A stretch of 64,000 nt of DNA, taken from positions 2,811,103 through 2,875,102 of the forward strand of contig CAWJET010000001.1 of NCBI GenBank assembly GCA_963842085.1, written 5' to 3'. Positions 14,466-36,008 of this stretch are shown piece by piece. The notes under the pieces were generated by a model, which did no database searches, was not told the origin of the DNA, and saw only the letters and a list, made by a program, of their open reading frames with translations. Origin of the DNA: an uncultured delta proteobacterium (GTDB taxonomy: Bacteria; Desulfobacterota; Binatia; Binatales; Binataceae). The position numbers and the translations under genes are program-made. How positions within the stretch are numbered: position 1 is the first letter of the stretch; every line of letters begins with the position of its first letter.

Positions 14466-15623
14466 ATGGATCAAGCGCGAAAAGATCGGAAGACACGGCA
14501 GATAGCGATCGGCAGCACCAAGGTTGGCGGCGACGCGCCGGTGGTGGTGCAATCGATGTGCGCGACGCGGACGATCGACGTCGACGAGACCGTCGCGCAG
14601 GCGCATCAGCTGGCGAATGCGGGCGCGGGAATCGTCCGGATCGCGATGGACAGCGAGAAGGAACTCCCGGCGCTGAAGGAAATCCGCAAACAGACGAAGG
14701 GAGTCGTGCTGTCGGTCGATTTGCAGGAGAACTACAAAATCGCAGACCGCGTCGCGCCCCACGTCGACAAGATTCGCTACAACCCGGGCCATCTGCACCA
14801 TATCGAGAAGTCGAAGACGATCGAGCAGAAGGTGAAATGGCTGGTCGATGTGGCGCGGGACAACGACGTCGCGATCCGGATCGGCGTCAACTGCGGGTCG
14901 GTGGCGCCGGCATTCCTGGACAAGTACCCCGGCGATCAACTCGCTGCGATCGTCGAGTCGGCCGCGTACCATTGCGCCCTGATGGACGAGCTCGGCTTCA
15001 CGCGCTTCGTCGTGTCGCTGAAGGATTCCGATCCGATCAAGGTGATGGACGTGAACCGGCGCTTCTCGAAACGGCGCCCTGACGTGCCGATTCACCTGGG
15101 CGTCACCGAGGCGGGATTGCCGCCCGACGGAATCATCAAGACGCGGATAGCGTTCGAGAAGCTGCTCGCGCAGAGTATCGGCGATACGATCCGCGTCTCG
15201 CTGACGTTGCCCAACGAGCGCAAGCACGAGGAAGTGCTCGTCGGGCATAAGATTATCGAGGACGTCGCGGCGGGCAGGTTCATCTCGGTGCCCGACTTCG
15301 GTGCGGGGCTGAATATCATCTCGTGTCCGTCGTGCTCCCGCGTCGAGAACATGAAGTTCGTCGAGCTGGCGCAGCAGGTCAAGGAACTCACGACCTACGC
15401 CGAGAAGTACAAGATCACGATTGCGATCATGGGATGCCGGGTGAACGGGCCGGGCGAGACCGACGACGCCGACCTTGGGTTGTGGTGCGGTCCGACGACG
15501 GTGAATCTCAAGAAGAAGGATCACAAGCTGGGTTACTTCGGCTACGAAGAAGTGCTGCCCAAGCTCCGCGCCGAACTGGACCGGCTGATCGCCGAGCGCA
15601 GTTCGGCTTCTACCGCCAGCTAA
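14466..15623 (+). CDS. ispG: 4-hydroxy-3-methylbut-2-en-1-yl diphosphate synthase (GcpE)
   Basis: Full-length IspG with a TIM-barrel N-domain and a C-terminal 3-Cys cluster domain (ISCPSCSR...MGCRVNG). Confidence 0.9.
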
Positions 15624-15634
15624 GCGCCCTCAAT

Positions 15635-16114
15635 TCAGCAAGACGACAGGAAGTCCGCGATCTCACGATCGCTGGTCAATCTGCGGACGGGGACGTTCGG
15701 CCCATATTTGATTCGCTGCGCTTCGATCTGCGGACGGTTGAGTCGGTCGAAACTCCGGATGAAGCGCAGCACCTTGGACAAGTCCCCAATTCGATGGTGC
15801 TCGCCGGGCTGAAACACGCGAGTGATCGCGCGCGCGGCGCAGAACAGCTTTGGGCGGTCGAGCCAGATCACGAGAGTGGCGCGAGTTAGACGGATGTCGA
15901 AGGTCGCGGCTGCAAAGTTACCGTCGCTGATCCACGTTTCCCCGGCGTGAGCTTCCTTGATCAATGTGCGGAAAGTGAGGACGTCACCTTTGGTCCAATT
16001 CGGCTGCCAGATTTCGTCGAGGCAAATCACGGGCGCACCAGTGCGCGCGCTGAGCCGTCGCGCGAAGGTAGTTTTGCCGCTGCCGGCGCGGCCGAGGATC
16101 ACGATTCGCGACAT
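15635..16114 (-). CDS. P-loop NTPase (adenylate-kinase-like / topology-modulation-type small kinase)
   Basis: Walker A motif ILGRAGSGKTT at the N-terminus; 159 aa. Confidence 0.65.
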   Translation of the reverse strand: MSRIVILGRAGSGKTTFARRLSARTGAPVICLDEIWQPNWTKGDVLTFRTLIKEAHAGETWISDGNFAAATFDIRLTRATLVIWLDRPKLFCAARAITRVFQPGEHHRIGDLSKVLRFIRSFDRLNRPQIEAQRIKYGPNVPVRRLTSDREIADFLSSC

Positions 16115-16211
16115 TAGAGATTGGGCTCACATCGCGGAACCCTCACCGCTGACCGCGTTGCGGTCAGCCGCCTCTGCCGTGAAATAACGGGTGAGGTGAA
16201 GACGCGGAACA

Positions 16212-16297
16212 AGAATCTTGAATCGCGCGCGGAAGGAATCGCGCGCTGAATAATGACCCTCACCTTCATCCTCTCCCTTGCAGGGAGAGGGGAAAAG
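16212..16297. repeat. Miniature two-hairpin repeat element, family 2, copy 1
   Basis: AGAATCTTgAATCGCGCG...GCGCGCTGAaTAAtGACCCTCACCTTCATCCTCTCCCTTGCAGGGAGAGGGGAA is about 85% identical to 46471-46552. It contains a CGCGCG hairpin and a 9-bp CCTCTCCCT/AGGGAGAGG hairpin. Confidence 0.5.
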
Positions 16298-16328
16298 TGC
16301 GAGCCAAATCCTGCCGCAGAAAGAGTTC

Positions 16329-16979
16329 TCAGATCTTCTGGTTGGTTTTGCGCCAGTCGGCGAGGAAACGCTCTAGGCCTAGATCTGTCAGTGGGTGATG
16401 AAGCGTCTGTTTGAGCACTGCGAACGGGACGGTTGCGATGTCGGCGCCGACCGCGGCTGCGCGCAGCAGGTGCGACGTGTTGCGCACCGACGCTACCAGC
16501 ACTTCGGCCGGGTAGTCGTAGTTCGACAGTATCTGCACCATATCCTCGACGATAGCGAAGCCATCCTGTCCGATGTCATCGAGGCGTCCGATAAACGGCG
16601 ACAGGAATGAGGCGCCGACCTTGGCCGCCGCCAGCGCCTGCAACGGCGTGAAGATGAGTGTAACGTTGACGCGGATGCCGCGTTTGGCGAGCGCGTGGGT
16701 CGCTTTCAGCCCTTCGATGATCATCGGGCACTTGACGACGATGTTCTTGTGGACCTTGGCGAGTTTCTCGCCTTCTTCGATCATGGCGGATGCTTCAGTG
16801 GCGACGACTTCGGCGCTGATCGGGCCGTCGACGATTTCGCAAATCTCGCGCAGCACGTCGTGGTACGGGCGGCCGGTTTTCGCCATCAGCGACGGATTGG
16901 TGGTGACGCCGTCGATGATTCCCCAACTGGCGGCCTCGCGAATCTCGGCGACTTCCGCGGTATCGATAAAATATTTCAT
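16329..16979 (-). CDS. tal: Transaldolase / fructose-6-phosphate aldolase (short TalC/FSA type)
   Basis: A 216-aa TIM-barrel aldolase with a Schiff-base lysine region (NIVVKCPMI), colinear with MipB/FSA. Confidence 0.85.
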
Positions 16980-18699: not shown

Positions 18700-19080
18700 C
18701 TGTCGAAACAGCCTTTAGACCACAGTGACCAAGACGTAAGTAACATACTTTCCGAGGCGTCGGAACTACCTGTTGCGATAAATCGGCTTTCTCGCACAAT
18801 GGAAATCCACAGGTGGGCGCGACGATTCCAAGATTCAGCACGGCAAGCAACATTAATTTTGCTTGATTCAGAACGACCTTATTGTTAGAAATTTTTAATT
18901 CCCGAACGATGGCGCAGTGGCGCGGTTTGGGATTATTCAGTGAGAAACGCGTTTGCCTGGTTGAGTGGCATTGCCTTTTCTTAGGATACGGTTGGTTGTT
19001 CGACGATGAGTTCCGACTTGCCTGGCGTTTCATCGTTGAATCGCACTGAGCGGTCGTAGCCTCAGGGCCTGATCGTCAGC

Positions 19081-19599
19081 ATGAACCGGATATTGCTTGT
19101 ACTTGCCCTGTCGACGGTCCTTTTTGGCGGGGCCGTGATCGCGCTGTCGGAGCGGCCATGGGCGCCGCGCGCTGACGTAGTCCAGCCGATCCCGTTCAGC
19201 CATCGGATACACGCCGGGGAGAACAAGATTCCCTGTCAGTACTGTCATGCCGACGCCAGCCGCTCGTCCGAACCGGGGATTCCGGCGGTTAGAAGGTGCG
19301 TGGGATGCCATGGCGACCGCCTTGTGGGCGGCGGCGGAATCGAGCCGGTGACGCGGCCGTGGACGGACGACACGCCGGCGGCGTTCGAGATTCAGTGGAA
19401 TCGCGTTTACACACTGCCCGATTTCGTGCGGTTTACCCATCGGCCGCATATTCACGCCAAGGTGCAATGCCAGACTTGTCACGGCCCGGTGCAAACGATG
19501 GATCGGGTGGTGCCGGCGTTTGAAATCAACATGGGCTTCTGCGTGGACTGTCACACGAAAAAGAAAGCGACGCTCGACTGTGTGGACTGTCATCACTGA
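19081..19599 (+). CDS. actA: Alternative complex III subunit ActA (pentaheme cytochrome c)
   Basis: A signal/anchor helix and five CxxCH motifs (CQYCH, CVGCH, CQTCH, CVDCH, CVDCHH). Confidence 0.8.
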   Translation: MNRILLVLALSTVLFGGAVIALSERPWAPRADVVQPIPFSHRIHAGENKIPCQYCHADASRSSEPGIPAVRRCVGCHGDRLVGGGGIEPVTRPWTDDTPAAFEIQWNRVYTLPDFVRFTHRPHIHAKVQCQTCHGPVQTMDRVVPAFEINMGFCVDCHTKKKATLDCVDCHH

Positions 19600-22551
19600 G
19601 TGAGGAATCAGATGCGCGAGGGACCGTCGATTTCCAGGCGATCATTCATCAAGCTGGCCGCAACTGCGGGCGCGGCGGCGGCGATCCCTGGCTGCGAGCC
19701 GGCCGCGCGCAAGCTGATCCCATACGTGGTGCCCGATGAGAACGTAGTCCCCGGGGTCCCGAGTTTTTTTGCGACGACGTGTGCGGAGTGCCCGGCGGGA
19801 TGCGGCGTGGTGGCGCGAATCCGGGAAGGGCGGGTCGTCAAACTCGAGGGAAACCCCGCCGATCCGATCGGCCAAGGCACGTTGTGCGCGCGGGGGCAGG
19901 CGGCGCTGCAAGGCTTGTACAATCCGGACCGCCTGGCGCATCCGCAAATTCGCGGCGACAACGGCGCGCTGCGGACCGTGTCGTGGGACGAAGCGGAGAA
20001 AATGCTTGGTGACCGGCTGGCGGCGGCGTCGAAGGCGGGCAAGGATCGCGTCGCCTTCTTCGGTTCGCCGCATGGCCCGACTTTCAGGAAGATCGCACTT
20101 GCGGTGGTGGGCGCTTACGGTTCATCGCGCGCGATATTTTACGAGGCGGTCAATAATGAACCGGCGCGGGTCGCGGCGAAGACCCTCTTTGGCCGGCGCG
20201 ATCTGCCGGCCTATCGAATCGATCAGGCCGAAGTGCTGATTTCGTTCGGTGCGGATTTCCTCGAGACCTGGCAATCGCCGGTGGAACTGGCGCGCCAGTA
20301 CGCGCTGTTCCGCGCGCCGCAGAAGCGGCGCGGCACGCTGACTATCGGCCGCGCGACCTACGTTGGCCCGCGGCTCAGCATGACGGCGTCCAAGTGCGAC
20401 GACTGGATCGCGACGGCTCCGGGGGTGCAGGCCGACGTTGCGTGGAGTGTGCTCAACGTCCTGGTCAAGCAGCGTTGGATTTCGCAGAACTCGGGCTTCG
20501 ATCTCGACGCGCTGACCAGGGCGGTCGCGAATTTCGATCCGGCCGCCACCAGCACACGAACCGGCGTGCCGGTCGAGACTATTACCCGGCTGGGCGAGAT
20601 GTTCGGCAAGGCGGACGGCGCATTGGCGATTGCGGGCACCGACGATTCGTCGGCTCATCTGGCGGCGATGATCCTCAATGCGGTCACCGGCAACTTTGGC
20701 AGGACCGTAATGTTTTTCGAAGGCTCGCCGGCCGAAGAGACCAGCACGCCGGACGACGTGGACGCGGTGGTTGACGCGATGCGCGACGGCAATATCGATG
20801 TGGCATTGGTCGCGGGCGGGAATCCGGTCTTCACGATGCCGCCGTCGGCGCGAATGGCCGAAGCGCTACAGAAAGTTCCATTCGTCGTGTGGGCGGGAGG
20901 CGTGCCGGACGAGACTGCGGCGATGGCGAATCTCATTTTGCCGGCGCATCATCCGCTCGAATCATGGCGCGACACTGCGCCGCGCGCGGGAATCCGGGGG
21001 CTGGGTCAGCCGGTGATGCAGCCGGTGTTCGAGAGCAAGGCGGTCGGCGACATCCTGCTGGCGGCGGCGGCGAAATCGTTGAGCGCGAAGCTTCCGTGGG
21101 CGACTACGGCGGAAGCGGTCAAAGCTGAGTGGCTCGCGTTGGCTCCCAAAGCGGACAAGGCGGATCCCGAAGATTTCTGGGTGAAGGTGCGGCGCGAAGG
21201 CGGCCTGTTCGAGGAACAGCATCTTTCGGCGCTCAGCCTCGACACGTCTGCGTTCAAGGCGCCGGTGCCGACGGCGGCCCAGTCCGAACTTTCCGTTTAC
21301 GCCTACCCGCACATCTTCCTTTACGACGGGCGCGGCGCGGACAAGCCGTGGCTGCAGGAATTGCCCGAGCCGGTCACCCAGATCGTGTGGGACAGCTGGG
21401 CCGAGATCCATCCGGAGACCGCGCGCCAGCTCGGCGTCGCCAAGGACGACATTATCGAGATCAAAACGGAGCACGGCGCGATCGAGGCGCCGGTGCTGGT
21501 CGAGAGCACGGTGCGTCCCGGCGTGATCGCGGTTCCGCTCGGGCAGGGGCATCGCGCGTACGGCCGCTATGCAAAAGACGTCGGCGCAAATGCGTGGGCG
21601 ATAATGGCGGAGGGTGCGACCTATGCCGCCGCGACCGCGCGCGCGACCGGCAAGACGCGCACGCTCGTTTCGCCGCTCGGCAAGAGCGAGATGATGGGCC
21701 GTTCGATCATCGAGGCGATGAGTATCGAGCAGTTGGCGAACGGGGTGGTTCCCAAGAGCGAGGCGCAAGAGGTTACCGGGCCGTTCGAAATGTACCCGCG
21801 GTGGAAATATCCCACGCACAAGTGGGGCATGACCATCGACGTCAATGCGTGCACCGGTTGCAGCGCGTGCGTGACCGCGTGCTACGCGGAGAACAATGTT
21901 CCGTTTGTGGGCAAGCAAGGGGTTGATAACGGCCGAATCATGTCGTGGATCCGCATCGAGCGTTATTTCCCGGACGAAAAGGGCGCGGCGGAAGCGCCGC
22001 AACTCTACCTAGCGCCGATGCTGTGCCAGCAGTGCAATCACGCGCCGTGCGAGCCGGTCTGCCCGGTGTTCGCGTCGTATCACACCCGGGAAGGCCTCAA
22101 TGGCCAGATTTACAATCGATGCGTCGGTACGCGCTATTGCGAAAACAACTGTCCGTACAAGGTGCGCCGATTCAACTGGTTCGTGCCGGAGTGGCCCGCG
22201 CCGCTCAACCTGCAACTCAATCCCGACGTGACGGTGCGCGGCGCCGGGGTGATGGAGAAATGCACGTTCTGCATCCAGCGCATTCAGTTCGGCGAGCTCA
22301 ACGCGAAGACCGAGGATCGCCAGTTGCGCGACGGCGAGATCCTGACCGCGTGCCAGCAGACCTGCCCGACACGGGCAATCACGTTCGGCGACAGCGACGA
22401 TCCCGGCAGCGCAATGATGCGCCGGCGCGACGACAACAAGCTGCGCACCTATCGCGCGCTGGAAGAACTCAACACGCAACCGGCGATCACGTATCTGCGC
22501 TCTCTATCGCGAGAAAGGAAAGGCCTGAAGTGGCGGCGGCGCCGAAGGTAA
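19600..22551 (+). CDS. actB: Alternative complex III subunit ActB (molybdopterin-oxidoreductase-like domain fused to 4Fe-4S ferredoxin domain)
   Basis: A Tat signal (SRRSFIKLAATAGAAAA) and a molybdopterin-fold N-domain are followed by C-terminal poly-Cys ferredoxin motifs (CTGCSACVTAC, CQQCNHAPCEPVCP, CENNCPYK, CTFC). Confidence 0.85.
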   Translation: MRNQMREGPSISRRSFIKLAATAGAAAAIPGCEPAARKLIPYVVPDENVVPGVPSFFATTCAECPAGCGVVARIREGRVVKLEGNPADPIGQGTLCARGQAALQGLYNPDRLAHPQIRGDNGALRTVSWDEAEKMLGDRLAAASKAGKDRVAFFGSPHGPTFRKIALAVVGAYGSSRAIFYEAVNNEPARVAAKTLFGRRDLPAYRIDQAEVLISFGADFLETWQSPVELARQYALFRAPQKRRGTLTIGRATYVGPRLSMTASKCDDWIATAPGVQADVAWSVLNVLVKQRWISQNSGFDLDALTRAVANFDPAATSTRTGVPVETITRLGEMFGKADGALAIAGTDDSSAHLAAMILNAVTGNFGRTVMFFEGSPAEETSTPDDVDAVVDAMRDGNIDVALVAGGNPVFTMPPSARMAEALQKVPFVVWAGGVPDETAAMANLILPAHHPLESWRDTAPRAGIRGLGQPVMQPVFESKAVGDILLAAAAKSLSAKLPWATTAEAVKAEWLALAPKADKADPEDFWVKVRREGGLFEEQHLSALSLDTSAFKAPVPTAAQSELSVYAYPHIFLYDGRGADKPWLQELPEPVTQIVWDSWAEIHPETARQLGVAKDDIIEIKTEHGAIEAPVLVESTVRPGVIAVPLGQGHRAYGRYAKDVGANAWAIMAEGATYAAATARATGKTRTLVSPLGKSEMMGRSIIEAMSIEQLANGVVPKSEAQEVTGPFEMYPRWKYPTHKWGMTIDVNACTGCSACVTACYAENNVPFVGKQGVDNGRIMSWIRIERYFPDEKGAAEAPQLYLAPMLCQQCNHAPCEPVCPVFASYHTREGLNGQIYNRCVGTRYCENNCPYKVRRFNWFVPEWPAPLNLQLNPDVTVRGAGVMEKCTFCIQRIQFGELNAKTEDRQLRDGEILTACQQTCPTRAITFGDSDDPGSAMMRRRDDNKLRTYRALEELNTQPAITYLRSLSRERKGLKWRRRRR

Positions 22552-23888
22552 TCGCAGAGCCGACGTTCCGCGACATCGACCGCAGCGTGCGGCGAGTGAT
22601 GGAACCGGCGGGCCTCGCGTACTGGGCGTGGATCGGCTTCTGCTTCACGCTGGTGGCGATCGCGGCGGCTTTGTGGTTGCGGCAGATCTATACCGGGCTG
22701 GGCGTGACGGGTCTTCGCCAGCCGGTGATGTGGGCGATCTACATTACCAACTTCGTTTTCTGGGTCGGGATCGCGCATTCGGGAACGTTGATCTCCGCGA
22801 TTTTGTTCCTGTTCCGCACCAAGTGGCGCACCGCGGTTTATCGCGCCGCGGAGACGATGACGATATTCGCGGTCGCGACGGCGGGACTGTTCCCATTAGT
22901 CCATCTTGGCCGCGTGTGGTTTTTCTACTGGTTATTGCCATACCCCAATGAGCGATCGCTGCAACCCGATTTCCGCTCGCCATTGGTATGGGACGCTTTC
23001 GCAGTTAGTACCTATCTGACTATCAGCGCGCTGTTCTGGACGATGGGACTGATTCCCGACATCGCCAACGCGCGCGAGGCCGCGACCGGATGGCGCAAGA
23101 AGTTCTACACGGTGCTGGCGATGGGCTGGCAGGGAACCGACCGGCAGTGGCGGCATTACTCGATGGCGTACCTGCTGATGGCGGGCCTGGCGACTCCGCT
23201 GGTGATCTCGGTTCACTCGGTGGTGTCGTGGGACTTCGCGATGGCGCAACTGCCGGGCTGGCACAGCACGATCTTCGCGCCATACTTTGTCGCCGGCGCG
23301 ATCTTTTCCGGCGTCGCGATGGTTATCACGCTGCTGGTCCCGATGCGCAAGCTGCTGGGCATCGAGGACCTGCTGACCGAGTGGCATTTCGACAATCTGG
23401 CGAAGGTCATCCTGCTGACCTCGCTGATCGTTTCGTACTCGTACATTACTGAAACGTTCATGGCCTGGTACTCGGGCGACAAGATCGAGCAGATGACGTT
23501 TCACATGCGCTACTTCGGGCCGTGGGGTCCGCTGTTCTGGGTAATGGTTTTGTGCAACTGCCTGATACCACTGTTGCTATTTTCACCGCGCATCCGGGTT
23601 AACCTGACGGCGCTCTGGATAATCTCAATTTTCGTGAACATCGGGATGTGGCTCGAGCGCTTCGTGATCATCGCGGGCTCGCTCCGGGTGAACTTCGAGC
23701 CTTCGCAGTGGGGCCCCTACCATCCGTCGATCACTGAAATCATGATCACGGTCGGCAGCTTCGCGTGGTTCGTGGGGCTGTTCTCTCTGTTCTCCAGGTT
23801 CCTGCCGATCTTCTCGATGACGGAACTCAAGGAAGGAATCGTCTGGCTGCGGAAGGCGCTGAAGATGGATCGGGTCAAAGCCGCATGA
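22529..23888 (+). CDS. actC: Alternative complex III subunit ActC (NrfD/PsrC-like quinol-interacting membrane subunit)
   Basis: A polytopic NrfD-like membrane protein. A GTG start at 22529 is preceded by a GAAAGGAAAGG ribosome-binding site, overlaps the actB end, and lies in the same frame as the tracked ORF. Confidence 0.75.
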
Positions 23889-24397
23889 GCACGGTTGCGA
23901 TCATAAGTTCGTTCGCGGATGACGCTCAATGCGCGCAAGCGATCGAGGAGCTGCGCGCGGCGCAGGTTGGCGACTTCAATACCTTCTCGCCGATACCGAG
24001 CCATCGGATCGAGCATGCAATCGGCCGGAAAAAGAGCCCGGTGCGGTGGCTGGTGCTGGCGGGTGGAATTTCAGGCGTTCTGACCGGGCTCGCGATCACG
24101 ATTGGAACGACTTACGAGTGGCGCCTCAATGCGGGCGGCAAGCCGCTGCTGTCGTGGCCGCCGTTCATCGTGATCTGCTTCGAATTGATGGTCCTGCTGG
24201 GCGGAATCTTCGGCTTCTTCGGAGTGCTGGGGCTTGCGGGTGTGCCCACGACCGAGTCGGCGCCAGGCTACGAGGGGCGCTTCGGCGAGGATCGATTCGG
24301 GATCGTGGTTCGATGCGACGAGGCGGAAGCGGAGCGCGTCGAGTCGATGCTGAAGGAATCGGGTGCGGAAGAGGTCATGCGTGAAGGTGTCCGGTAA
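23885..24397 (+). CDS. actD: Alternative complex III subunit ActD (small two-TM membrane protein)
   Basis: The ATG overlaps the actC stop (ATGA). Two predicted TM helices, consistent with ActD size and position. Confidence 0.6.
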   Translation: MSTVAIISSFADDAQCAQAIEELRAAQVGDFNTFSPIPSHRIEHAIGRKKSPVRWLVLAGGISGVLTGLAITIGTTYEWRLNAGGKPLLSWPPFIVICFELMVLLGGIFGFFGVLGLAGVPTTESAPGYEGRFGEDRFGIVVRCDEAEAERVESMLKESGAEEVMREGVR

Positions 24398-24403
24398 ACC
24401 GCG

Positions 24404-25624
24404 ATGAGCACTAATCTTCAACCGGCGCATCGCGAGCGCGCAGAGACGAAGCCGCGGCCGGTGGAGTCGGTGGCCGGCGCGACAATGCAGACAGTCGCGG
24501 CCGCGATGATCGCGCTGGGTGCGATCGCGTTTGCGTTGGCGCTGACGCGGGGCGGCGCCGCTGTCGCATGGGAAGCCTATCTCGTCAACTTGCTGTTCTT
24601 CCTCGGCGTCGCGCAGGGTGCGCTGGTCGCATCCGCGGCGTTCTACCTGACGCAGGCGAAGTGGGGCGGTTCGACGCCGTATCGGCTCGGCGAGGCGTTC
24701 GCGCCATTTCTGTGGGTCGGATTTTTTCTGTTTTTTGGATTGTACTTCGGCCGCAGCCTGATTTTTCCGTGGGTGACGCATCCGATTCCGCAGAAGGCCG
24801 CGTGGCTGAACACTCCGTTTCTCTTCGCGCGCGATGGAATCGGGCTCGGCGCCATGGCTGCGGCGAGCTTCGCGTTTGTCCGCGTCTCGCGTGGCGATGA
24901 CGCACGGGCGTGGACGACTGCGACCGCCGACATCGAGTTGCCGCCGCATTCGATACGGGTGCTCGCTCCGCTGGTCGCGGTCCTGTTCGCGGTGGTCTAC
25001 TCGCTGATCGCATTCGATCTGGTCATGTCGCTCGCGCCGGTGTGGCGCAGCACACTTTTCGGCTGGTACTTTTTCGCCGGCGCATTCTGGAGCGGATTGA
25101 CCGCGATGGCTCTCACAGCGGTCGTGTTGCGCGGCCGCCTGGGCGAGAACAACCTGTTCACCAATCCCGTCGTCATGCACGACTTCGGCAAGATGGTCTT
25201 CGCGTTCTCCGTGTTCTGGATATACCTGATGTTCGCGCAGTACATCGTGATCTGGTACGGCGACATCCCGGTCGAAACTTTCTTCATCGTTCAGCGGGTA
25301 CATCATATGCCGTGGTCGCCGCTATCGGTGGCGTGCCTGGTGCTGATCTGGCTGATTCCGTTTACCGTGCTGATGAGCGTGCGGGCCAAGAAGGCGCCGG
25401 CGATTCTCGGCACAGTGGCCGGGCTGGGGCTGGTCGGGATGTGGCTCGAGCGTTACGTGCTGGTGGTGCCGTCGCTGTCGCTCGACGCGATCCCGTTTGG
25501 GCCGACGCAATTTCTGATCACGCTTGGTTTTTTGGGCGCATTTCTCATTTCGGCAGTGCCGGGACTGAACCGCGTCGCGCAGGCCGCGACCTCGGGCGAA
25601 CCCGTCGGAGATGATCCGGAATGA
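24404..25624 (+). CDS. actF: Alternative complex III subunit ActF (second NrfD-like membrane subunit)
   Basis: A 406-aa polytopic protein paralogous in architecture to ActC. No monoheme ActE gene lies between actD and actF. Confidence 0.7.
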   Translation: MSTNLQPAHRERAETKPRPVESVAGATMQTVAAAMIALGAIAFALALTRGGAAVAWEAYLVNLLFFLGVAQGALVASAAFYLTQAKWGGSTPYRLGEAFAPFLWVGFFLFFGLYFGRSLIFPWVTHPIPQKAAWLNTPFLFARDGIGLGAMAAASFAFVRVSRGDDARAWTTATADIELPPHSIRVLAPLVAVLFAVVYSLIAFDLVMSLAPVWRSTLFGWYFFAGAFWSGLTAMALTAVVLRGRLGENNLFTNPVVMHDFGKMVFAFSVFWIYLMFAQYIVIWYGDIPVETFFIVQRVHHMPWSPLSVACLVLIWLIPFTVLMSVRAKKAPAILGTVAGLGLVGMWLERYVLVVPSLSLDAIPFGPTQFLITLGFLGAFLISAVPGLNRVAQAATSGEPVGDDPE

Positions 25625-26649
25625 TCCGGCGCGGTTCAAACAAGTATTCGATCGCCTCAGTAGCTATGCGAGTGGCTATTGCACTGACTATTGCGGGATG
25701 CTCGGCGACGGACCGTCCGATGACAACGCTGGCGCCGAAATCGGACCTGGCGCAGTGGATTCACAGTCTCTTCATAGATGTGACGATCTGGGACGGGATC
25801 ATCCTGGCGATCGTGGTCGCCGCATTCATCCTCGCGGTGTTCGTCTTTTCTTCTCGCGTAGGCGAAGCGGCGCCACCCTCGACCGCGTCGTCCGACCTCG
25901 GCCTGGAAATAGCGTGGACGGTGGGCCCCGCGCTGGTGTTGTTGATGATCTCGGTGCCGACGATACGGACGATCTTTCGCTCGCAGCCGGCGGTTGCGCC
26001 TGCTGGAGCGCTGGAGATCAAAGTAGTCGCGCATCAATGGTGGTGGGAGTTCGACTATCCGGACGGCGTGAAGACCGGTAACGAACTGCATATCGCCGTC
26101 AACCGGCCGATTCGCCTGTCACTGGAATCGGCCGACATCATCCACAGCTTCTGGGTGCCGCAACTGGGCGGCAAACGCGACGTGGTGCCGGGCCAAATCA
26201 ATGAGCTGACATTCGTCGCGACGGTAACCGGAATGTATCCGGGGCAATGTGCCGAGTTTTGCGGCCTGTCGCATGCGAACATGCGCTTTCGAGTGTTCGT
26301 CGATTCGCCGGAAGGGTTCGCGATGTGGGACAAGGCGCAACTTGCCGGCCCGGTCGCGCCACCGGCGAGCGATCAGTTGGCGTCGGACGGCGCGAAGATT
26401 TTCGCCGACAGTCCGTGCACGACCTGCCACATGATCAAGGGCGTCTCGAAGGGATATATCGGCCCTGACCTGACGCATTTCGGCAGCCGCACAACGCTGG
26501 CCGCCGGAGTGCTGAAGAACACGCCCGAGAACGTCGCCCAGTGGATCCAGGATCCGCAGGAAATCAAGCCGGGCGCGAATATGCCGGCGCTGCTGTTGCC
26601 AGGGCCAAAGATGAACGCCCTGGTCGCGTATCTCGAGAGTCTCAAATAG
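25621..26649 (+). CDS. coxB: Cytochrome c oxidase subunit II fused to a C-terminal cytochrome c domain (caa3-type)
   Basis: A CuA site (HSFWVPQLGGKRD, CAEFCGLSHANM) and a C-terminal CTTCH heme c motif are present. The ATG overlaps the actF stop. Confidence 0.9.
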   Translation: MIRRGSNKYSIASVAMRVAIALTIAGCSATDRPMTTLAPKSDLAQWIHSLFIDVTIWDGIILAIVVAAFILAVFVFSSRVGEAAPPSTASSDLGLEIAWTVGPALVLLMISVPTIRTIFRSQPAVAPAGALEIKVVAHQWWWEFDYPDGVKTGNELHIAVNRPIRLSLESADIIHSFWVPQLGGKRDVVPGQINELTFVATVTGMYPGQCAEFCGLSHANMRFRVFVDSPEGFAMWDKAQLAGPVAPPASDQLASDGAKIFADSPCTTCHMIKGVSKGYIGPDLTHFGSRTTLAAGVLKNTPENVAQWIQDPQEIKPGANMPALLLPGPKMNALVAYLESLK

Positions 26650-26659
26650 GGAGCGTCCA

Positions 26660-29134
26660 ATGGCCGCCCAGCCGAAACCATTGCCAGTGCGTCAGCCGAG
26701 CTACCTCGAAGGTGGCGGAATACTCGGATGGCTGACGACGATCGATCACAAGCGCGTCGCGGTCATGTACCTCGCCAGCGCGCTGTTCTTCATGGCGTTC
26801 GGCGGACTCGAAGCGATGGCGATTCGCGTACAGTTGTGGCGTCCCGACAATCACGCGCTGTCGGCGGCGACCTACAACGCATTTTTCACGATGCACGGGA
26901 CGACGATGGTCTTCCTGGTCGTCATGCCGCTGCTGCTCGGCTTCATGGGCAACTTCCTGATCCCGCTGCAGATCGGCGCGCGCGACGTGGCGTTTCCGCG
27001 GCTCAACGCGCTGAGCTTCTGGCTCGCCCTGAGCGGAGGCATACTGCTCCATCTCGGCTGGATTCGCGGCGGACTTCCCGATGCGGGATGGTTCGGTTAT
27101 GCGAACCTGACCGAACGGTACTTCACGCCGGGCCTGGCGATCGACTGGTGGGTGATCGGGCTGCTGGTGTTAGGCACTTCGACCGTCCTTACGGGCCTGA
27201 ACTTCCTGACGACGATCATTGCGATGCGCGCGCCGGGCATGACGTACATGCGGATGCCGATGTTCATCTGGGCGCAATTGGTGACGTCGATCCTGATCTT
27301 GATCGCGTTTCCCCCGCTCACGATCGGGCTGATCTTTCTGCTCTTCGATCGCTTCTTCGGCACGCATTTCTACATCGCGACGGCGGGCGCCACGCCCATC
27401 CTGTGGCAGCATCTGTTCTGGCTGTTCGGTCATCCCGAAGTGTACATCATGGCGCTGCCGGCCTTTGGAGTCATCTCGGAAGTCATTCCGGCGTTTTCGC
27501 GCAAGCCGCTGTTCGGCTATCCGATGATGGCCTATTCGATTTGCCTGATCGCATTTCTGTCGTACGGCGTGTGGGGCCATCACATGTTCGCGACCGGGAT
27601 GGGCCCGGTTGCGGACTCGGCATTCGCGATCACCTCGATGCTCATCGCGATCCCGACCGGGGTGAAAATTTTCAGCTGGATCGCGACGGTCTGGGGCGGC
27701 TCGCTGCGCATGACGACCGCATTCTATTTCGCGCTTGGGATGATCCTCGAGTTCACGATCGGCGGACTCAGCGGAATCATGCACGCGTCGGCGCCGATCG
27801 ATCTTCAGCAGACGGACTCGTACTTTGTCGTCGCGCACTTTCACTACGTGCTGTTCGGCGGGGTGATGTTCGCGATCCTGGCGGGGTTCTATTACTGGTG
27901 GCCGAAGATAACCGGCCGCATGCTCGGCGAGCGGCTTGGCAAGTGGCAGTTCTGGGTAACGGTAGTCGGATTCAACCTTACGTTTTTCCCGATGCATTTT
28001 CTCGGGATGTGGGGGATGCCGCGGCGCACCTACACCTACGGCGCCGACCTGGGCTGGACGCAGCTCAACCAGCTCGAGACGATCGGCGCGTTCATTCTCG
28101 GCATCGCGTTCCTGCTTTTCTACTTCAATATTTTCAGGAGTCTCGCCAGTGGAGAGCAGGCGCCCGCGGATCCATGGGACGGACGCAGCCTCGAATGGTC
28201 CACGCCGTCGCCGCCGCCGGCGTACAACTTCGCGACCCTTCCGCAAATCCGCGGCCGCGACGCGTGGTGGGTTCTCAAGTACGGGCGCGCCGGCTCGCGC
28301 GGCGTTGCCGCCTACATGTCGGGGCAGGCGCCGTCGCAACCGCGGTCGGGCGAGCCGCCCTCCGTCGAGCACATCCACATGCCGGCGCCTTCGATCTTCC
28401 CGCTGGTACTGAGTCTTGGCGTCGGGATGATGGGCCTTGGTCTCATCATCGACTGGTACCGCATCGTGCTCATCGGCGCGGCGGACGTGGTCCTGTCGAT
28501 TATCGGGATGGGATTCGAGTACGCGAACTTCGGCGAAGAATCGCACGACCCCGAGCACGCGCCCTCGTCTGGTGGAATCGACGTGCGCAAGATCGGCATC
28601 TGGTCGTTCATCGGCTCGGAGTGCGTGTTCTTCGCCAGCCTGATCTCGACCTTCATCGTTTACAAATCGCGCAGCGTTACCGGGCCGGGGCCGGAAATCC
28701 TCAACATCCCGCTGACTTCGTTCAGCACCTTCATCCTGCTGATGAGTTCACTGCTGATGGTGCTGGCGCTGGCGGCCACCCAGCGCGGCGACAAGCTATG
28801 GACGCGAATCTGGCTCGGCGGCACGGTCACGTTCGGGCTGATTTTTCTTTGCGGGCAGGTTTACGAGTTCACCAGCTTCTACCGCGAAGGCATGGGACTG
28901 ACGACCAACCTGTTCTCGCAGTCGTTCTTCGTCCTGGTCGGATTTCACGGTGCGCACGTTGCGATCGGAGTGATGTGGCTGTCGGTCCTGTTGATCGCGG
29001 CGATGACGGGCAAGCTCGGCAAGTCGCGCGCGCTGTCGGTCGAGCTCGCGGGACTTTACTGGCATTTCGTCGACGTCGTGTGGATCATCATATTTACTCT
29101 CGTCTATCTGATGCAGGCGGTGCCCGGAGCATGA
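26660..29134 (+). CDS. coxA: Cytochrome c oxidase subunit I fused to subunit III (caa3-type CoxA/CoxC fusion)
   Basis: At 824 aa it carries COX1 motifs (WFFGHPEVY region, HHMF) followed by a COX3-like seven-TM C-terminal domain. Confidence 0.9.
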   Translation: MAAQPKPLPVRQPSYLEGGGILGWLTTIDHKRVAVMYLASALFFMAFGGLEAMAIRVQLWRPDNHALSAATYNAFFTMHGTTMVFLVVMPLLLGFMGNFLIPLQIGARDVAFPRLNALSFWLALSGGILLHLGWIRGGLPDAGWFGYANLTERYFTPGLAIDWWVIGLLVLGTSTVLTGLNFLTTIIAMRAPGMTYMRMPMFIWAQLVTSILILIAFPPLTIGLIFLLFDRFFGTHFYIATAGATPILWQHLFWLFGHPEVYIMALPAFGVISEVIPAFSRKPLFGYPMMAYSICLIAFLSYGVWGHHMFATGMGPVADSAFAITSMLIAIPTGVKIFSWIATVWGGSLRMTTAFYFALGMILEFTIGGLSGIMHASAPIDLQQTDSYFVVAHFHYVLFGGVMFAILAGFYYWWPKITGRMLGERLGKWQFWVTVVGFNLTFFPMHFLGMWGMPRRTYTYGADLGWTQLNQLETIGAFILGIAFLLFYFNIFRSLASGEQAPADPWDGRSLEWSTPSPPPAYNFATLPQIRGRDAWWVLKYGRAGSRGVAAYMSGQAPSQPRSGEPPSVEHIHMPAPSIFPLVLSLGVGMMGLGLIIDWYRIVLIGAADVVLSIIGMGFEYANFGEESHDPEHAPSSGGIDVRKIGIWSFIGSECVFFASLISTFIVYKSRSVTGPGPEILNIPLTSFSTFILLMSSLLMVLALAATQRGDKLWTRIWLGGTVTFGLIFLCGQVYEFTSFYREGMGLTTNLFSQSFFVLVGFHGAHVAIGVMWLSVLLIAAMTGKLGKSRALSVELAGLYWHFVDVVWIIIFTLVYLMQAVPGA

Positions 29135-29460
29135 GCGAGATTGCAGATACCCACGGCGGGCAGGTTCATCATCCCGGCGCGGCGACGTATCTGATCATCG
29201 CCGCGTTCCTGGTGGTGTTGACGGCGATGGAGGTCACCGTGTTCTACCTGCACGCACTGCGTCCCGTGCTGGTGCCGGTATTGATCGTTCTGGCCGCGGC
29301 CAAGTTCGCATTGGTCGCGATGTTCTATATGCACTTGAAGTACGACGGATGGCTGCTGACGGGCGTGTTCATCTTCCCGCTGATGATGGCGACGCTCCTG
29401 CTGATCTCGCTGATCCTGCTCTTCGCGTATTTGTTGCATCACATGGCGCCGATCGGATAG
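29131..29460 (+). CDS. coxD: Cytochrome c oxidase subunit IV (prokaryotic small subunit)
   Basis: A 109-aa three-TM protein. The ATG overlaps the coxA stop (ATGA). It is hidden in the ORF track inside a 910-aa wrong-frame ORF. Confidence 0.65.
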   Translation: MSEIADTHGGQVHHPGAATYLIIAAFLVVLTAMEVTVFYLHALRPVLVPVLIVLAAAKFALVAMFYMHLKYDGWLLTGVFIFPLMMATLLLISLILLFAYLLHHMAPIG

Positions 29461-29467
29461 GGCAGTT

Positions 29468-30280
29468 TTGGCGATGGACATTCTGGGAGAACATCCGAGC
29501 ATACCGATAGGCGTCGCGTTTCTGATCGCGATTTACCTCGGCGCGTGCCGCGCGGCCGGCCGCAGACCGACGCGGCGTCAGGCGATGTGGTTCGCGTTGG
29601 CGATGGGCGCGATTCTATTCACGCACACTGAGCTCGACGAACTCGCGGACGCGCGAATCTTTTCGATGCACATGCTGCAGCATCTGATGCAGACCCTTGT
29701 GATTCCGCCGCTGCTGCTGATGGGTACGCCGGGCTGGATGCTGAGGCCCTGGCTCCTCAGCCGGCCGCTCAAGCCGATCGCGCGCCTGCTCACGCAACCG
29801 GTGGTGGCGTTCCTGATTTTTTCGGCGGTGTTCGTCAGCGCGCACTTTCCGCCGATCTTCGATCGGATGTGCCGCGACGAGGACTTTCACATTTTCCTGC
29901 ACCTGCTGTTCATGGCCTCCGGCGTGCTGCTATGGTTCCCGATACTGAGTCCGCTGCCCGAGCTGCCGCGGCTCTCGTACCCGGCGCAAATCCTTTACCT
30001 GTTCCTGCTGATGATCCCGATGACTGCGGTGGCCGCGCCGATCACGCTCGCGACCCGCGTGATTTATCCATGGTATACCGAGGGCGCGCACGGATGGGGC
30101 CTCAAGCCGATCGACGACCAGGTGCTGGGCGGGCTGATCATGTGGATCGGGCAGGGCACGTATCTGATGTTCATTTTCACATTCATCTTCTACAAGTGGC
30201 AGCAGCGCGAAGACCGCGACATCCCGGTTCTGCCCGCATCGACGACGCCGGAGCTGCGCGTGCTGCGAGCCCGCTCGTGA
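29468..30280 (+). CDS. ctaG: caa3-type cytochrome oxidase assembly factor CtaG-like membrane protein
   Basis: A 270-aa polytopic protein immediately after coxD. The size, position and conserved His-containing loops are consistent with Caa3_CtaG. Confidence 0.6.
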   Translation: MAMDILGEHPSIPIGVAFLIAIYLGACRAAGRRPTRRQAMWFALAMGAILFTHTELDELADARIFSMHMLQHLMQTLVIPPLLLMGTPGWMLRPWLLSRPLKPIARLLTQPVVAFLIFSAVFVSAHFPPIFDRMCRDEDFHIFLHLLFMASGVLLWFPILSPLPELPRLSYPAQILYLFLLMIPMTAVAAPITLATRVIYPWYTEGAHGWGLKPIDDQVLGGLIMWIGQGTYLMFIFTFIFYKWQQREDRDIPVLPASTTPELRVLRARS

Positions 30281-30357
30281 CGCTTGCCGGGTCCGGATCT
30301 TCTGGGCTACTAGTTGCGTAGTCGCGCGCCTGATTTTGGCCCGCCGGGGCCGGCTGC

Positions 30358-31410
30358 GTGACGAGGAAGATGCAGCATTCGAGGGCGCGGATCATCATCG
30401 ATGGAGCGGTTGCCGGGATCATCGGCGCCCTGGTTGTCGCCCTCTGGTTTCTGATCTTCGACGTAATTCGCGGTCACGCGCTTGAGACGCCGGCCCTGCT
30501 GGCGGCCACGATTCTGCACGGCTCGCACAATTACGAAGTCCTTCACGGGCTGAAGCTGCTGGCGCTGGAATACTCGCTGCTCCACTTCGCCGCCTTCATC
30601 GCGTTCGGCATCGCCGGAGGATTGCTGCTCGAAGCGTGCGAGAGCGAGTCGTCGCTGCTCTTTTCGCTGGCGATCTTTTTCGTCGCCTTCGAAGTTTTCT
30701 TTATCGCGGTCGTGCTGTTCCTGGGGCCGAACGTGATGGCGGAGCTGACCTGGTGGGGTATCATCGTCGGCAACCTGCTCGCCACGGCCGCGATGCTGTC
30801 GTATTTCTTCTGGCGGCATCCTGCCCTCGCGTTCAATCTGCTGGGCGGCTGGATTACGGTCGCGCGCGAAGGCGTGACCGCCGGACTGGTGGGCGGCGTC
30901 GTCGTCGCCATCTGGTTCATGTGCTACGACTTCGCCGCGGGCAATTCGTTTCACACGCCGGCGATTCTTGGTGCGATGGTCTTTGGCAGCGCGAGCGTAA
31001 CCAGTGGCATCCACGCGACGCTGCCGCTGGTGCTCGGCTACTCGATCCTGCATTTCTTTGCGTTCGTCGTGTTCGGGCTGGCGCTGGCGGTTTTGCTTGC
31101 TGCATCGGAATGGGAACCGTTCATGCTCCTCGGCGCGCTGCTGCTGCTTGCAGTGTTCGAGGTATTCTTTGTCGGATTCGTTTCGCTGATCGATGCGTCA
31201 GCGCTCGAAGCCCTGGGATGGTGGAAAATCGTAGCGGGAAACATCCTGGCGCTGATCGCGATGGCGACGTACTTCATCCGCGGCCATCACGGACTCGGTA
31301 TCAAACTGGTTGAGCGATGGGCGATGCTCGACCACGAGGGCGCCGAGATGGGCGATCTGCCGCCCGCGCCGTCCAACCACGAGCCCGACAATCATCCATC
31401 GCATCTTTGA
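30358..31410 (+). CDS. Polytopic membrane protein of unknown function with internal tandem duplication
   Basis: Residues ~15-170 and ~175-330 are clear paralogous repeats (…LHGS/…TSGIHATLPLVLGYSILHFFAFVVFG versus …LHFAAFIAFGIAG…). Each ends with FEVFF(I/V) and a WWGII/WWKIV helix, and there is a His-rich C-terminal tail. Confidence 0.55.
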   Translation: MTRKMQHSRARIIIDGAVAGIIGALVVALWFLIFDVIRGHALETPALLAATILHGSHNYEVLHGLKLLALEYSLLHFAAFIAFGIAGGLLLEACESESSLLFSLAIFFVAFEVFFIAVVLFLGPNVMAELTWWGIIVGNLLATAAMLSYFFWRHPALAFNLLGGWITVAREGVTAGLVGGVVVAIWFMCYDFAAGNSFHTPAILGAMVFGSASVTSGIHATLPLVLGYSILHFFAFVVFGLALAVLLAASEWEPFMLLGALLLLAVFEVFFVGFVSLIDASALEALGWWKIVAGNILALIAMATYFIRGHHGLGIKLVERWAMLDHEGAEMGDLPPAPSNHEPDNHPSHL

Positions 31411-32623: not shown

Positions 32624-33781
32624 TCATAGAGGGTGGGAATCAATCATTCGCAGTGAAAGTGCCAACGCTGCCATTGCGAGCGTGGCTGTCAGCGCGACCT
32701 CCATGCTTGCGCGCGGGCTTACGTCGGCGATCGCATGGCCCATTATCCAGGGCGCGACGATCCCGCCGAGCGCGCCGCCCGCCACTACGATCGCAGTCAT
32801 CCTGCCGACCTCGGCCGGGAAGCTGGCGGCGCCAATCGCGATCATGTTGGGGAAGACGGGGCCGTAGCCGAAGCCGATCAGAAACACAGCCGATGCCGCA
32901 AGGCCGCCGGCCGTGGGCGCCGCGATCAACATCACCAGCGCAGCGGAAGATAGCATAGAAGCCAGCATCGTGAATTGCGGCAATGCGATGCGATGCCCCA
33001 ATCGTCCGCCAAACGCCCGCCCGCACACCAATCCCAGCCAATAGAGCGAGACGCCCGACGACGCGAGCATCGGGCCGAGCGCGCCCGCCGTGCGCAAGTA
33101 GAGAAAGAGCCACGCGCCAATCCCGATTTCGGCGCCGACGTACAGGAACATCACTGCGCTGATCGCCCAAATCAGCGGTCGCGATAGCATCTTCAGAAAT
33201 CCGTGGCCGATGACCGGCGCCGTTCGGACTTCGATTGCTGCGCTAAGGCCTAAGCGAAACGCGATTGCGGCACACATGATCGCGCCGCCGCCGAACACCC
33301 ACCAGTACGGCACCCGGGCTGCGAAGGCGGCGCTGACCATCAGCGGCCCGAGCAGCGCGCCGACGCCGAACAGCACGTGCAGGTAGTTGAGCGCGGAGGC
33401 GAGCCGCTCGCGATTCAGCTCTACGATGAGCGCATTGGCGCCGATGTCGATGCCGCCATTGGCGACGCCGATCACAAATCCGGCCGATAGCAGTCCAGTA
33501 AGGCCACGAGCCACTGCGAGCCTCGTCAGCCCGGCCGTGAACAGCGCCATCGCACCGACGAGGATCTTCTGCGCGCTCATTTGTTGATTGATCTCGCCGG
33601 CGATCAGCACCGATATGAAATAACCGGCCGACGCGGCGCTGACGATCAATCCGGCGCGCTCGATCGGCAGATGCGTGGTACGAGAAATCTGGGGGATAAA
33701 GGGGCCGAGCCAGCCACTATTGATGCCCACCATCAGCAGGCACGAATACGCCAGCCGGGTGATCGTTCGCTCGCGGCTCAT
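32624..33781 (-). CDS. MFS transporter
   Basis: Twelve predicted TM helices with MFS-like loop motifs. The Arg-rich 150-aa N-terminal extension in the ORF track was removed. Confidence 0.8.
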   Translation of the reverse strand: MSRERTITRLAYSCLLMVGINSGWLGPFIPQISRTTHLPIERAGLIVSAASAGYFISVLIAGEINQQMSAQKILVGAMALFTAGLTRLAVARGLTGLLSAGFVIGVANGGIDIGANALIVELNRERLASALNYLHVLFGVGALLGPLMVSAAFAARVPYWWVFGGGAIMCAAIAFRLGLSAAIEVRTAPVIGHGFLKMLSRPLIWAISAVMFLYVGAEIGIGAWLFLYLRTAGALGPMLASSGVSLYWLGLVCGRAFGGRLGHRIALPQFTMLASMLSSAALVMLIAAPTAGGLAASAVFLIGFGYGPVFPNMIAIGAASFPAEVGRMTAIVVAGGALGGIVAPWIMGHAIADVSPRASMEVALTATLAMAALALSLRMIDSHPL

Positions 33782-34909: not shown

Positions 34910-35021
34910 AGACGCTTTGTTTAGTCGAACGCCTTTGGCAAGGAAACGGGCGAGCGTGAGAGCGTTGGACCATTGAGATTTGCCGATGACGATTGCGCGA
35001 TGCGCGTGTTACAATCACTTG

Positions 35022-36008
35022 ATGGCCGCGACGTCAGAATCAGTCTCCAGTCCGCCCTTCGATGCGACGCTTGCGCGTCACGGGATTCGCGGGCTCACCC
35101 GCAAATCGCCCACGACCATCCAGGTAAACGTCGGCAAGTTGTGCAACCAGGCGTGCCATCATTGCCACGTCGACGCGGGCCCGCGGCGGACCGAACGGAT
35201 GACGCGAGCGACGGCGGAGCGCGTGCTCGAAGTGCTCGCGGCAAGTCCGCGGATCGAGGCGCTCGATATCACCGGCGGTGCGCCGGAGCTGAACCCGAAC
35301 TTTGCGATGCTGGTTGAGCGGGCGCGCGCGCTCGGCCGCAGGGTGATCGTTCGATGCAATCTGACGGTGACGCAGGAACCCGGGATGGAATGGCTGGTGG
35401 AATTCTACCGGCGCTCGGGCGTTGAGCTGGTTTGTTCGCTCCCGTGCTACACGGCCGCGAACACTGATCGTCAGCGCGGCGCGGGAGTGTTCGACAAAAG
35501 CATCGCGGCGTTGCGGCAACTGAATAGCGCAGGATTCGGGCGCGGCGAGCTGCGGCTGGATCTCGTGTACAACCCGATTGGAGCGTCGCTGCCGCCGCCG
35601 CAGGCGGAGCTCGAGGCGCAGTATCGCGACGAACTCGGGCGCAATTTCGGGATCATGTTCGATCGCCTGCTGACGATCACGAACATGCCGATCGCGCGCT
35701 TCGCCAACCAGTTGAGCGCCACCGGCAGCCATTCGGCGTACATGAGCCTGCTGGTGAATCACTTCAACCGGGCGACCGTGGACGCTCTGATGTGCCGCGA
35801 CCTGGTGAGCGTCGGATGGAACGGGCGGCTCTACGACTGCGACTTCAACCAGATGCTGGAAATCCCGCTCGGCGCCAGCGCCGCACAGACAATCTGGGAC
35901 ATCGACGACATCGGCGGACTCGCCGGCGCGCGCATCGCGACCGGCTCGCATTGCTTCGGATGCACCGCGGGCGCCGGCTCGAGCTGCGGCGGCGCGATCG
36001 CCATGTGA
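35022..36008 (+). CDS. Radical SAM/Cys-rich domain protein (ArsS-like, TIGR04167-type)
   Basis: A CNQACHHCHV radical-SAM cluster motif near the N-terminus and a C-terminal Cys-rich tail (GSHCFGCTAGAGSSCGGA). Confidence 0.75.
   Translation: MAATSESVSSPPFDATLARHGIRGLTRKSPTTIQVNVGKLCNQACHHCHVDAGPRRTERMTRATAERVLEVLAASPRIEALDITGGAPELNPNFAMLVERARALGRRVIVRCNLTVTQEPGMEWLVEFYRRSGVELVCSLPCYTAANTDRQRGAGVFDKSIAALRQLNSAGFGRGELRLDLVYNPIGASLPPPQAELEAQYRDELGRNFGIMFDRLLTITNMPIARFANQLSATGSHSAYMSLLVNHFNRATVDALMCRDLVSVGWNGRLYDCDFNQMLEIPLGASAAQTIWDIDDIGGLAGARIATGSHCFGCTAGAGSSCGGAIAM

Follow-up and report, generated by a model that had tools for sequence, protein, structure and literature searches.

Clusters of act genes, which encode alternative complex III (ACIII), followed by oxidase gene clusters are well documented (PMC5928083), and in Acidobacteria they have been described as 'superoperons' (PMC8407424). 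Here we describe such a cluster at positions 19081-30280 of a 64,000-nucleotide (nt) stretch (hereafter the window) of a Binataceae contig (CAWJET010000001.1, positions 2,811,103 to 2,875,102 of the forward strand; assembly GCA_963842085.1). The contig comes from Candidatus Binatus, a soil bacterium that is uncultured. Nine plus-strand genes, actA-actB-actC-actD-actF-coxB-coxA/III-coxD-ctaG, encode the ACIII subunits ActABCDF and a caa3-type oxidase with its assembly factor, and the monoheme cytochrome subunit ActE is missing. We consider it probable, judging from the genes, that this locus is one transcription unit comprising an ActE-less ACIII, an A1-type caa3 oxidase and CtaG, and that it provides a hard-wired route from menaquinol to oxygen with a direct electron step from ActA to CoxB.

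In Rhodothermus marinus, actABCDEFG are followed by the genes of a caa3 oxidase (structure 6F0K). The ACIII of this organism reduces caa3 directly, without a soluble carrier, and the docked supercomplex sets the cytochrome c domain of oxidase subunit IIc beside the ACIII cytochromes (PMC5928083). The Binataceae locus resembles this system in its pentaheme ActA, fused ActB, ActC pocket and channel residues, coupling glutamate of ActD and ActF, as well as in the oxidase cluster downstream, the fusion of subunit II to a cytochrome c and the fused subunits I and III, which are also present in the fitted supercomplex model; here, too, ACIII may donate directly to caa3. However, R. marinus has ActE, which is the direct donor to caa3, together with ActG and ActH, whereas the Binatus operon has no ActE and no recognizable ActG. 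The act and cox genes of the latter are translationally coupled through an ATGA overlap, unlike those of R. marinus. The R. marinus oxidase is of type A2 (YS motif), unlike the A1 oxidase found here.

The acidobacterial 'ACIII-A2 caa3 superoperon' (PMC8407424), represented in this study by loci L078-L082, likewise has act genes directly upstream of caa3 genes on one strand and has been read as encoding a respiratory supercomplex. In contrast to the Binataceae, these Acidobacteriota loci have both ActE and a downstream oxidase, with the ActE-like gene located between actD and actF, around 1.4 kb between actF and coxB, and an A2 oxidase bearing the motif YSHPAVY instead of the FGHPEVY (A1) of the Binataceae oxidases. 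In the ACIII-aa3 supercomplex of Flavobacterium johnsoniae (6BTM; PMC8552683), ACIII likewise needs no soluble carrier to pass electrons on to an A-type oxidase, and experiments have shown ActE to be dispensable. The bypass there is ascribed to a sixth heme that ActA carries on a mobile N-terminal domain, and the oxidase has no cytochrome c domain, whereas in Binatus the ActA has five hemes and the extra heme is on CoxB. According to Refojo et al. 2013, as cited in PMC8552683, actE is missing from act clusters of Sphaerobacter thermophilus, Geobacter sp. M21 and Pelobacter carbinolicus; so far as that citation describes them, they share with the present locus the lack of the monoheme subunit in an otherwise complete act cluster.

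The oxidase itself corresponds to the caa3 oxidase of Thermus thermophilus (2YEV), to which both subunit IIc and the I+III fusion can be aligned over their full lengths, and both enzymes have a small subunit IV. In Binatus, the gene for CtaG is inside the same operon, which is a difference from the T. thermophilus system. T. thermophilus uses a bc complex, not ACIII, and its caa3 oxidase is A2-type, compared with A1 in Binatus.

A published report on the Binatota records the presence of ACIII and complex IV and gives the cluster as actABCDEFG. Murphy et al. reported that Binatota with ACIII seldom have homologues of cytochrome c and suggested direct transfer from ACIII to complex IV (PMC8262859, Text S1). 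Precedents have been published for superoperons of ACIII and caa3, for act clusters without ActE and, as a proposal, for a direct route from ACIII to the oxidase in Binatota. The mildly new element is that a whole family combines the lack of ActE with a pentaheme ActA, an A1-type caa3 oxidase bearing a fused cytochrome c domain, and actF-coxB translational coupling.

Gene order and subunit identities

The initial annotation of the window, made from the sequence alone, described nine co-directional genes with overlapping or nearly abutting junctions. All nine open reading frames (ORFs) are present at their coordinates, and the junctions read directly in the sequence agree with that description. 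The actA stop codon is TGA at 19597-19599. For actB, the start is GTG 19600 or, with greater likelihood, ATG 19612, which is preceded by GAGGAA and is the start called in the public assembly (L001). The actB stop codon (22549-22551) lies beyond the GTG start of actC at 22530, giving an overlap of 22 nt. The sequence ATGA is common to actC and actD (23885-23888), to actF and coxB (25621-25624), and to coxA and coxD (29131-29134). The remaining spacings are 6 nt between actD and actF, 10 nt between coxB and coxA, and 7-13 nt between coxD and ctaG, depending on the ctaG start chosen. Because four junctions overlap and the remaining gaps are 0-13 nt, there is no room for internal promoters. The operon is flanked by a divergent aminotransferase gene upstream and a convergent dapB gene downstream.

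The actA gene (19081-19599, plus strand as are all nine) encodes a pentaheme cytochrome c of 172 amino acids (aa) with an N-terminal hydrophobic membrane-anchor helix. It contains five CXXCH motifs, matches the Pfam family Cytochrome_C7 (4e-11), and has the ActA chains 6btm_A (1e-28) and 6f0k_A (9e-28) as its top structure matches. ActB (19612-22551, 979 aa, or 983 aa from GTG 19600) is a predicted Tat-exported fusion of a molybdopterin-like B1 domain and an iron-sulfur (FeS) B2 domain, with the Pfam domains TAT_signal, Molybdop_Fe4S4, Molybdopterin, Molydop_binding and Fer4_7 (a C-terminal 4Fe-4S domain) all in one protein. Its C-terminus is a poly-arginine tail (KGLKWRRRRR; 22500-22551) coded by the 22 nt that overlap the actC start; this tail may be no more than a side effect of the overlap with the ribosome-binding and start region.

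ActC (22530-23888, 452 aa, GTG start) is the NrfD-like subunit with the quinol-binding site; it matches PF03916 (NrfD) at 2e-26 and the solved structures 6lod_C and 6f0k_C at 3e-132 and 4e-127, respectively. The quinol pocket of R. marinus ActC includes His139, Asp169 and Asp253, and Sousa et al. listed 30 residues of that protein belonging to the pocket, two proton half-channels and the cross-talk residue Ser245 (PMC5928083). When these were mapped onto the ActC of the window, 29 of the 30 were identical and the remaining one was a D-to-E replacement. The two-helix membrane subunit ActD (23885-24397, 170 aa) matches PF11821 at 2.5e-44 as well as solved-structure ActD chains, and the coupling residue Glu122 of R. 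marinus corresponds to E100 here.

The identity of the product of 24404-25624 (406 aa) was a point on which the initial annotation had declared itself refutable, and no Pfam or NCBIfam model matches it. Its top structure matches are nevertheless the ActF chains of R. marinus (6f0k_F, 2.5e-27) and F. johnsoniae (6btm_F, 1e-22), with 8k9e_F and 6lod_F also ahead of the ActC chains, which are weaker at 1e-12. Tyr284 and Tyr290 (R. marinus numbering), the former a proposed coupling residue, are conserved in the alignment. We therefore regard this protein as ActF, the second NrfD-like subunit, which has no quinol site. For each of ActA, ActC, ActD and ActF, the top solved-structure match is the corresponding ACIII chain, and the pentaheme ActA, the Tat-signal ActB with its C-terminal FeS domain and the two NrfD-like subunits of the initial annotation are all recovered. 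Comparison of the sequences confirms the ACIII identity of the actABCDF genes and shows both the gene identities and the conserved catalytic residues of the complex.

The oxidase genes were also assigned as first proposed, with Pfam, NCBIfam and 2YEV alignments in agreement. Subunit II, encoded by coxB (25621-26649, 342 aa), combines a CuA domain with a C-terminal monoheme cytochrome c domain and has a lipobox-like IAGC. It matches COX2_TM, COX2 and Cytochrom_C in Pfam and scores 177 bits, above the cutoff, with the NCBIfam model CoxB; its match to T. thermophilus subunit IIc (2yev_B, 3e-59) is full-length, and it carries the motif HSFW...CAEFCGLSHANM (CuA ligands) and CTTCH. The coxA/III gene (26660-29134, 824 aa) encodes fused subunits I and III, matching COX1 (1.6e-155) and COX3 in Pfam and the NCBIfam model CtaD_CoxA at 693 bits, again above the cutoff, and it aligns over its full length with the T. 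thermophilus I+III fusion (2yev_A). FGHPEVY occurs at CoxA residue 256; following the Pereira classification, we take this motif (helix VI glutamate, GHPEV) to denote type A1 and YSHP to denote type A2.

Subunit IV is encoded by the small coxD gene (29131-29460, 109 aa; PF03626 COX4_pro, 2.8e-11). As the initial annotation had noticed, this gene is masked by a 910-codon wrong-frame ORF (26728-29460), which overlaps coxA out of frame and of which coxD forms the last 109 codons; L001 and L002 each have a gene call of 109 aa for it. The last gene, ctaG, encodes a caa3-type oxidase assembly factor (29474-30280, 268 aa from ATG 29474, TTG 29468 also being possible; PF09678 Caa3_CtaG, 6e-53). In the 2-Mb ENA contig L001, ctaG (15590-16397, equivalent to 29474-30280 of the window) is split into calls of 52 and 204 aa, whereas the gene is whole in the window and in L002; the split probably stems from an erroneous frameshift in the L001 assembly.

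ActE and the transfer of electrons to the oxidase

Species-representative genomes were scanned with ActF, which yielded 80 loci, and the window proteins were compared with these 20-kb loci by tblastn. Loci whose ActF is 87-93% identical to that of the window are titled Candidatus Binatus, Binataceae or 'uncultured delta proteobacterium', and the lineage belongs to the phylum Binatota. By exact-protein look-up, the locus is found on a metagenomic contig of 2.06 Mb and in a metagenome-assembled genome. To search for ActE, we built a hidden Markov model (HMM) from 36 monoheme ORFs located between actD and actF in related loci, one of which matches the ActE chain 6f0k_E at 3.7e-16, and ran it on six-frame translations of the window and 83 loci.

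No match to the ActE HMM was found in any of the six frames of the 64-kb window, nor in those of any of the 35 Binataceae loci. In all 35 of these, actD adjoins actF with a gap of at most 64 nt (6 nt in the window). The absence of ActE from the locus, as the initial annotation had it, is thereby upheld. In contrast, an ActE-like monoheme gene is present in or beside the act cluster in 45 of 47 informative loci outside the Binataceae. These other lineages include other orders of Binatia, Gemmatimonadales, Vicinamibacterales, Acidobacteriota, Planctomycetes and Bacteroidota. Since ActE is nearly universal in these other lineages, its absence from the Binataceae would most simply reflect a loss in the ancestor of the family. 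Published work indicates that ActE is not universal (PMC8552683), and its absence defines a subtype of ACIII and is no bar to membership of the ACIII family.

Several features of the compared loci are worth recording here. Two other loci, L068 and L083, also have no ActE, and no oxidase follows their act genes. In L068, L076 and L077 (ActF at 10001-11100), which belong to metagenome-assembled genomes (MAGs) of a Planctomycetia member, a Prolixibacteraceae member and an unclassified organism, a pentaheme ActA-like gene (around 11100-11900) comes after actF and not before actB, so that the order of the act genes is different; ActE-like genes lie further downstream in L076 and L077. The ActE homologues at 1849-3204 of L041 (an Udaeobacter MAG) and at 8760-9953 of L056 (a 'Deltaproteobacteria' MAG) have a repetitive extension of 250-300 aa rich in His, Gly and Ala (GHQHGTSAAGGHQHGGAAAKH...) before the cytochrome c domain, which may serve in metal binding or as a spacer.

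Other heme c proteins are scarce around the locus. In the window, the only open frames with CXXCH are those of ActA and CoxB, a 98-codon frame (32657-32950) and a radical-SAM/DUF3641 protein. The approximately 30 window proteins that were scanned gave no further match to a cytochrome c, to a bc1 subunit or to an enzyme of heme A synthesis, and in none of the Binataceae loci is there another c-type cytochrome gene within about 10 kb of the cluster. The CHHCH-bearing ORF at 34980-36008 was considered as a cytochrome and rejected, as it encodes the radical-SAM/DUF3641 protein; a CXXCH ORF in L010 was rejected in the same way. A compensating sixth heme on ActA was also discarded, because ActA has five CXXCH motifs in both ActE-containing and ActE-less clusters.

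The oxidase genes accompany the ActE-less cluster throughout the family. Wherever a Binataceae locus reaches beyond actF (33 loci), the genes coxB, coxA/III, coxD and ctaG lie directly 3' of it, and all 33 retain the heme c CXXCH of CoxB and the motif FGHPEVY of CoxA. The initial annotation proposed that the cytochrome c domain fused to CoxB takes the role of ActE. In the strict sense the domain is not a replacement: R. marinus has both ActE and the fused domain (PMC5928083), and the CoxB domain has no specific similarity to ActE (weak match to the ActE HMM, E > 0.2), by which the idea that it is a captured ActE was rejected. To say that ActE is bypassed is better wording. The further proposal of a dedicated ACIII-caa3 unit from quinol to oxygen fits the ActE-less arrangement, invariant in 35 Binataceae loci, the position of the cox genes after actF, and the invariant heme c of CoxB.

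On these grounds we infer a single transcript, a supercomplex and a direct electron step from ActA to CoxB. Quinol:cytochrome c/oxidase activity is predicted for the ACIII encoded here. Menaquinol would be oxidized at ActC, and electrons would pass from this site to the FeS cluster of ActB nearest the pocket and then through the chain of five ActA hemes. With ActE missing, the last ActA heme would reduce the cytochrome c domain of CoxB directly, from which electrons would reach CuA, heme a and finally heme a3-CuB. Protons would be moved by the oxidase and probably also through the channels of ActC and ActF. With the nine genes translationally coupled, the two complexes would be made in matched amounts, and ACIII and caa3 are expected to occur together as a supercomplex. 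A stricter version of this scheme is more tentative, namely that the Binataceae have an obligate ActE-free supercomplex of ACIII and A1-type caa3 with six c-hemes in total, in which the five-heme ActA donates to CoxB directly and no other c-type carrier takes part.

Some points weigh against a direct ActA-to-CoxB route. The search for ActE covered 64 kb of a multi-megabase genome plus the 20-kb loci. In F. johnsoniae, the dispensability of ActE is attributed to the sixth-heme domain of ActA (PMC8552683), which the Binatus protein lacks, and in a speculation of Lorencik et al., ActE is possibly essential where ActA is pentaheme (PMC8552683). The scope of the search and this speculation also favor an alternative in which the gene assignments hold but electrons pass from ACIII to caa3 through a separate carrier coded outside the locus (a relocated ActE, a different monoheme cytochrome c in membrane-anchored or soluble form, a HiPIP (an iron-sulfur protein of high potential) or a cupredoxin), the loss of actE being a mere genomic rearrangement that leaves the carrier among the remaining megabases. 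Such a carrier would have a precedent in R. marinus, whose ACIII also reduces soluble cytochrome c and HiPIP (PMC5928083), and the position of the ActE-like gene does vary, since in L037, L076 and L077 it lies downstream of actF instead of between actD and actF. However, in the 45 loci with an ActE-like gene inside or next to the act cluster it is never absent from the flank of about 10 kb, whereas neither the window nor the 35 Binataceae loci contain a candidate; the reported rarity of cytochrome c homologues in ACIII-bearing Binatota (PMC8262859, Text S1) points the same way, and the oxidase already has a cytochrome c domain of its own. We consider a separate carrier unlikely, though it is the strongest of the alternatives.

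Much less probable is that ACIII and caa3 are mere neighbors, with ACIII mainly serving other acceptors, or acting as a general quinol:periplasmic-acceptor oxidoreductase, and the oxidase being fed by another source. ACIII clusters without an adjacent oxidase are indeed common, most of the non-Binataceae loci having no cox genes within 10 kb downstream, and partial bc1 genes have been reported in Binatales genomes (PMC8262859, Text S1). Yet those bc1 genes come without cytochrome c1 (PMC8262859, Text S1), and no other donor to the oxidase is evident near the locus. Moreover, actF and coxB overlap by ATGA in the window, and in the other 32 Binataceae loci reaching past actF, the distance from the actF end to the coxB start is 0-408 nt (tblastn coordinates).

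Finally, that the first five genes encode some other complex of the NrfD or complex iron-sulfur molybdoenzyme type, such as a Qrc-like menaquinone reductase, can be dismissed as highly improbable: although the top NCBIfam matches of ActA, ActB and ActC include QrcA, QrcB, QrcC and QrcD, their scores are far under the curated cutoffs (64 versus 180, 281 versus 440, 209 versus 400 and 35 versus 570), which together with the presence of ActD (PF11821) and the second NrfD-like subunit ActF, neither of which has a counterpart in the four-subunit QrcABCD (PMC13059093), effectively refutes it, and every subunit has an ACIII chain as its top solved-structure match in a cluster that is linked to an oxidase.

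Flanking genes and regulatory elements

The 381-nt divergent intergenic region 5' of actA contains a candidate sigma-70 promoter at 18863-18891 on the plus strand, with a -35 element TTGATT, a 17-nt spacer, and TGT followed by a -10 element TAGAAA. The surrounding AT-rich block (18852-18898; ATTAATTTTGCTTGATT...TGTTAGAAATTTTTAA) shows little or no variation when the upstream regions of 17 Binataceae loci are aligned, and such a promoter-like block is conserved upstream of actA only. A consensus promoter scan did not call the TTGATT/TAGAAA block, position 6 of its -10 element being A; it is a plausible extended -10 promoter. More conserved blocks are found further upstream, for example TTCTCGCACAATGGAAATCCACAGG at 18789-18813, and these could be regulator sites or a divergent promoter.

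A 128-nt segment of the actA 5' leader (18939-19066) is present only in the window and in L001, L009 and L015 among the aligned Binataceae loci inspected. It folds as a long hairpin (-37.6 kcal/mol) and is not repeated elsewhere in the window or the loci, and the long leader gave no match to a riboswitch or other known RNA in Rfam. At the other end, between ctaG and the next gene, a consensus scan found a weak terminator-like hairpin at 30315-30338 (plus strand) with a 5-bp stem and a T-rich tail, which likely marks the end of the transcription unit.

Just downstream of ctaG, a plus-strand gene at 30358-31410 encodes a Binataceae-specific, internally duplicated multi-pass membrane protein of 350 aa. 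Its two halves are 37% identical, and it has no match in Pfam or NCBIfam; all of its 438 homologues are annotated as 'hypothetical', and the named organisms are mostly Binatus or Binataceae, apart from two misnamed MAGs. This gene lies downstream of ctaG or the oxidase genes in most Binataceae loci, at a variable distance, and a Pfam scan of the genes inserted between it and ctaG in L007 found nothing relevant. The protein may be an accessory to the oxidase or to ACIII, but the linkage is loose and its membership in the system is uncertain.

Further along, the radical-SAM/DUF3641 gene (34980-36008, plus strand), whose CHHCH mimics a heme c site, adjoins a cytochrome P450 gene (36149-37372, minus strand); in L010, too, a radical-SAM/DUF3641 gene lies downstream of the oxidase cluster. 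The remainder of the window is unrelated to the act and cox genes, and encodes an MFS transporter, the P450, a beta-lactamase-fold protein, an isoamylase-like protein, enoyl-CoA hydratases and an RND efflux system, among others.

ACIII without ActE in the Binataceae

The locus represents an ActE-less subtype of ACIII within an ACIII-caa3 superoperon, and is otherwise a standard aerobic respiratory operon. It provides a gene-level basis for the earlier remark that the Binatota have few cytochromes c, and it refines the published statement of the cluster as 'actABCDEFG'.

The role of ActE is debated, since it is the direct donor to caa3 in R. marinus but is dispensable in F. johnsoniae, and the Binataceae constitute a natural test case. 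Their arrangement bears on the speculation of Lorencik et al. that ActE may be essential where ActA has no sixth heme, and suggests that the cytochrome c domain belonging to the oxidase can be supplied with electrons by the heme wire of ActA. If this is true, the Binataceae would be a natural counter-example to the suggested essential role of ActE in complexes whose ActA has no sixth heme, and would possess a minimal wiring of a complex III-IV unit.

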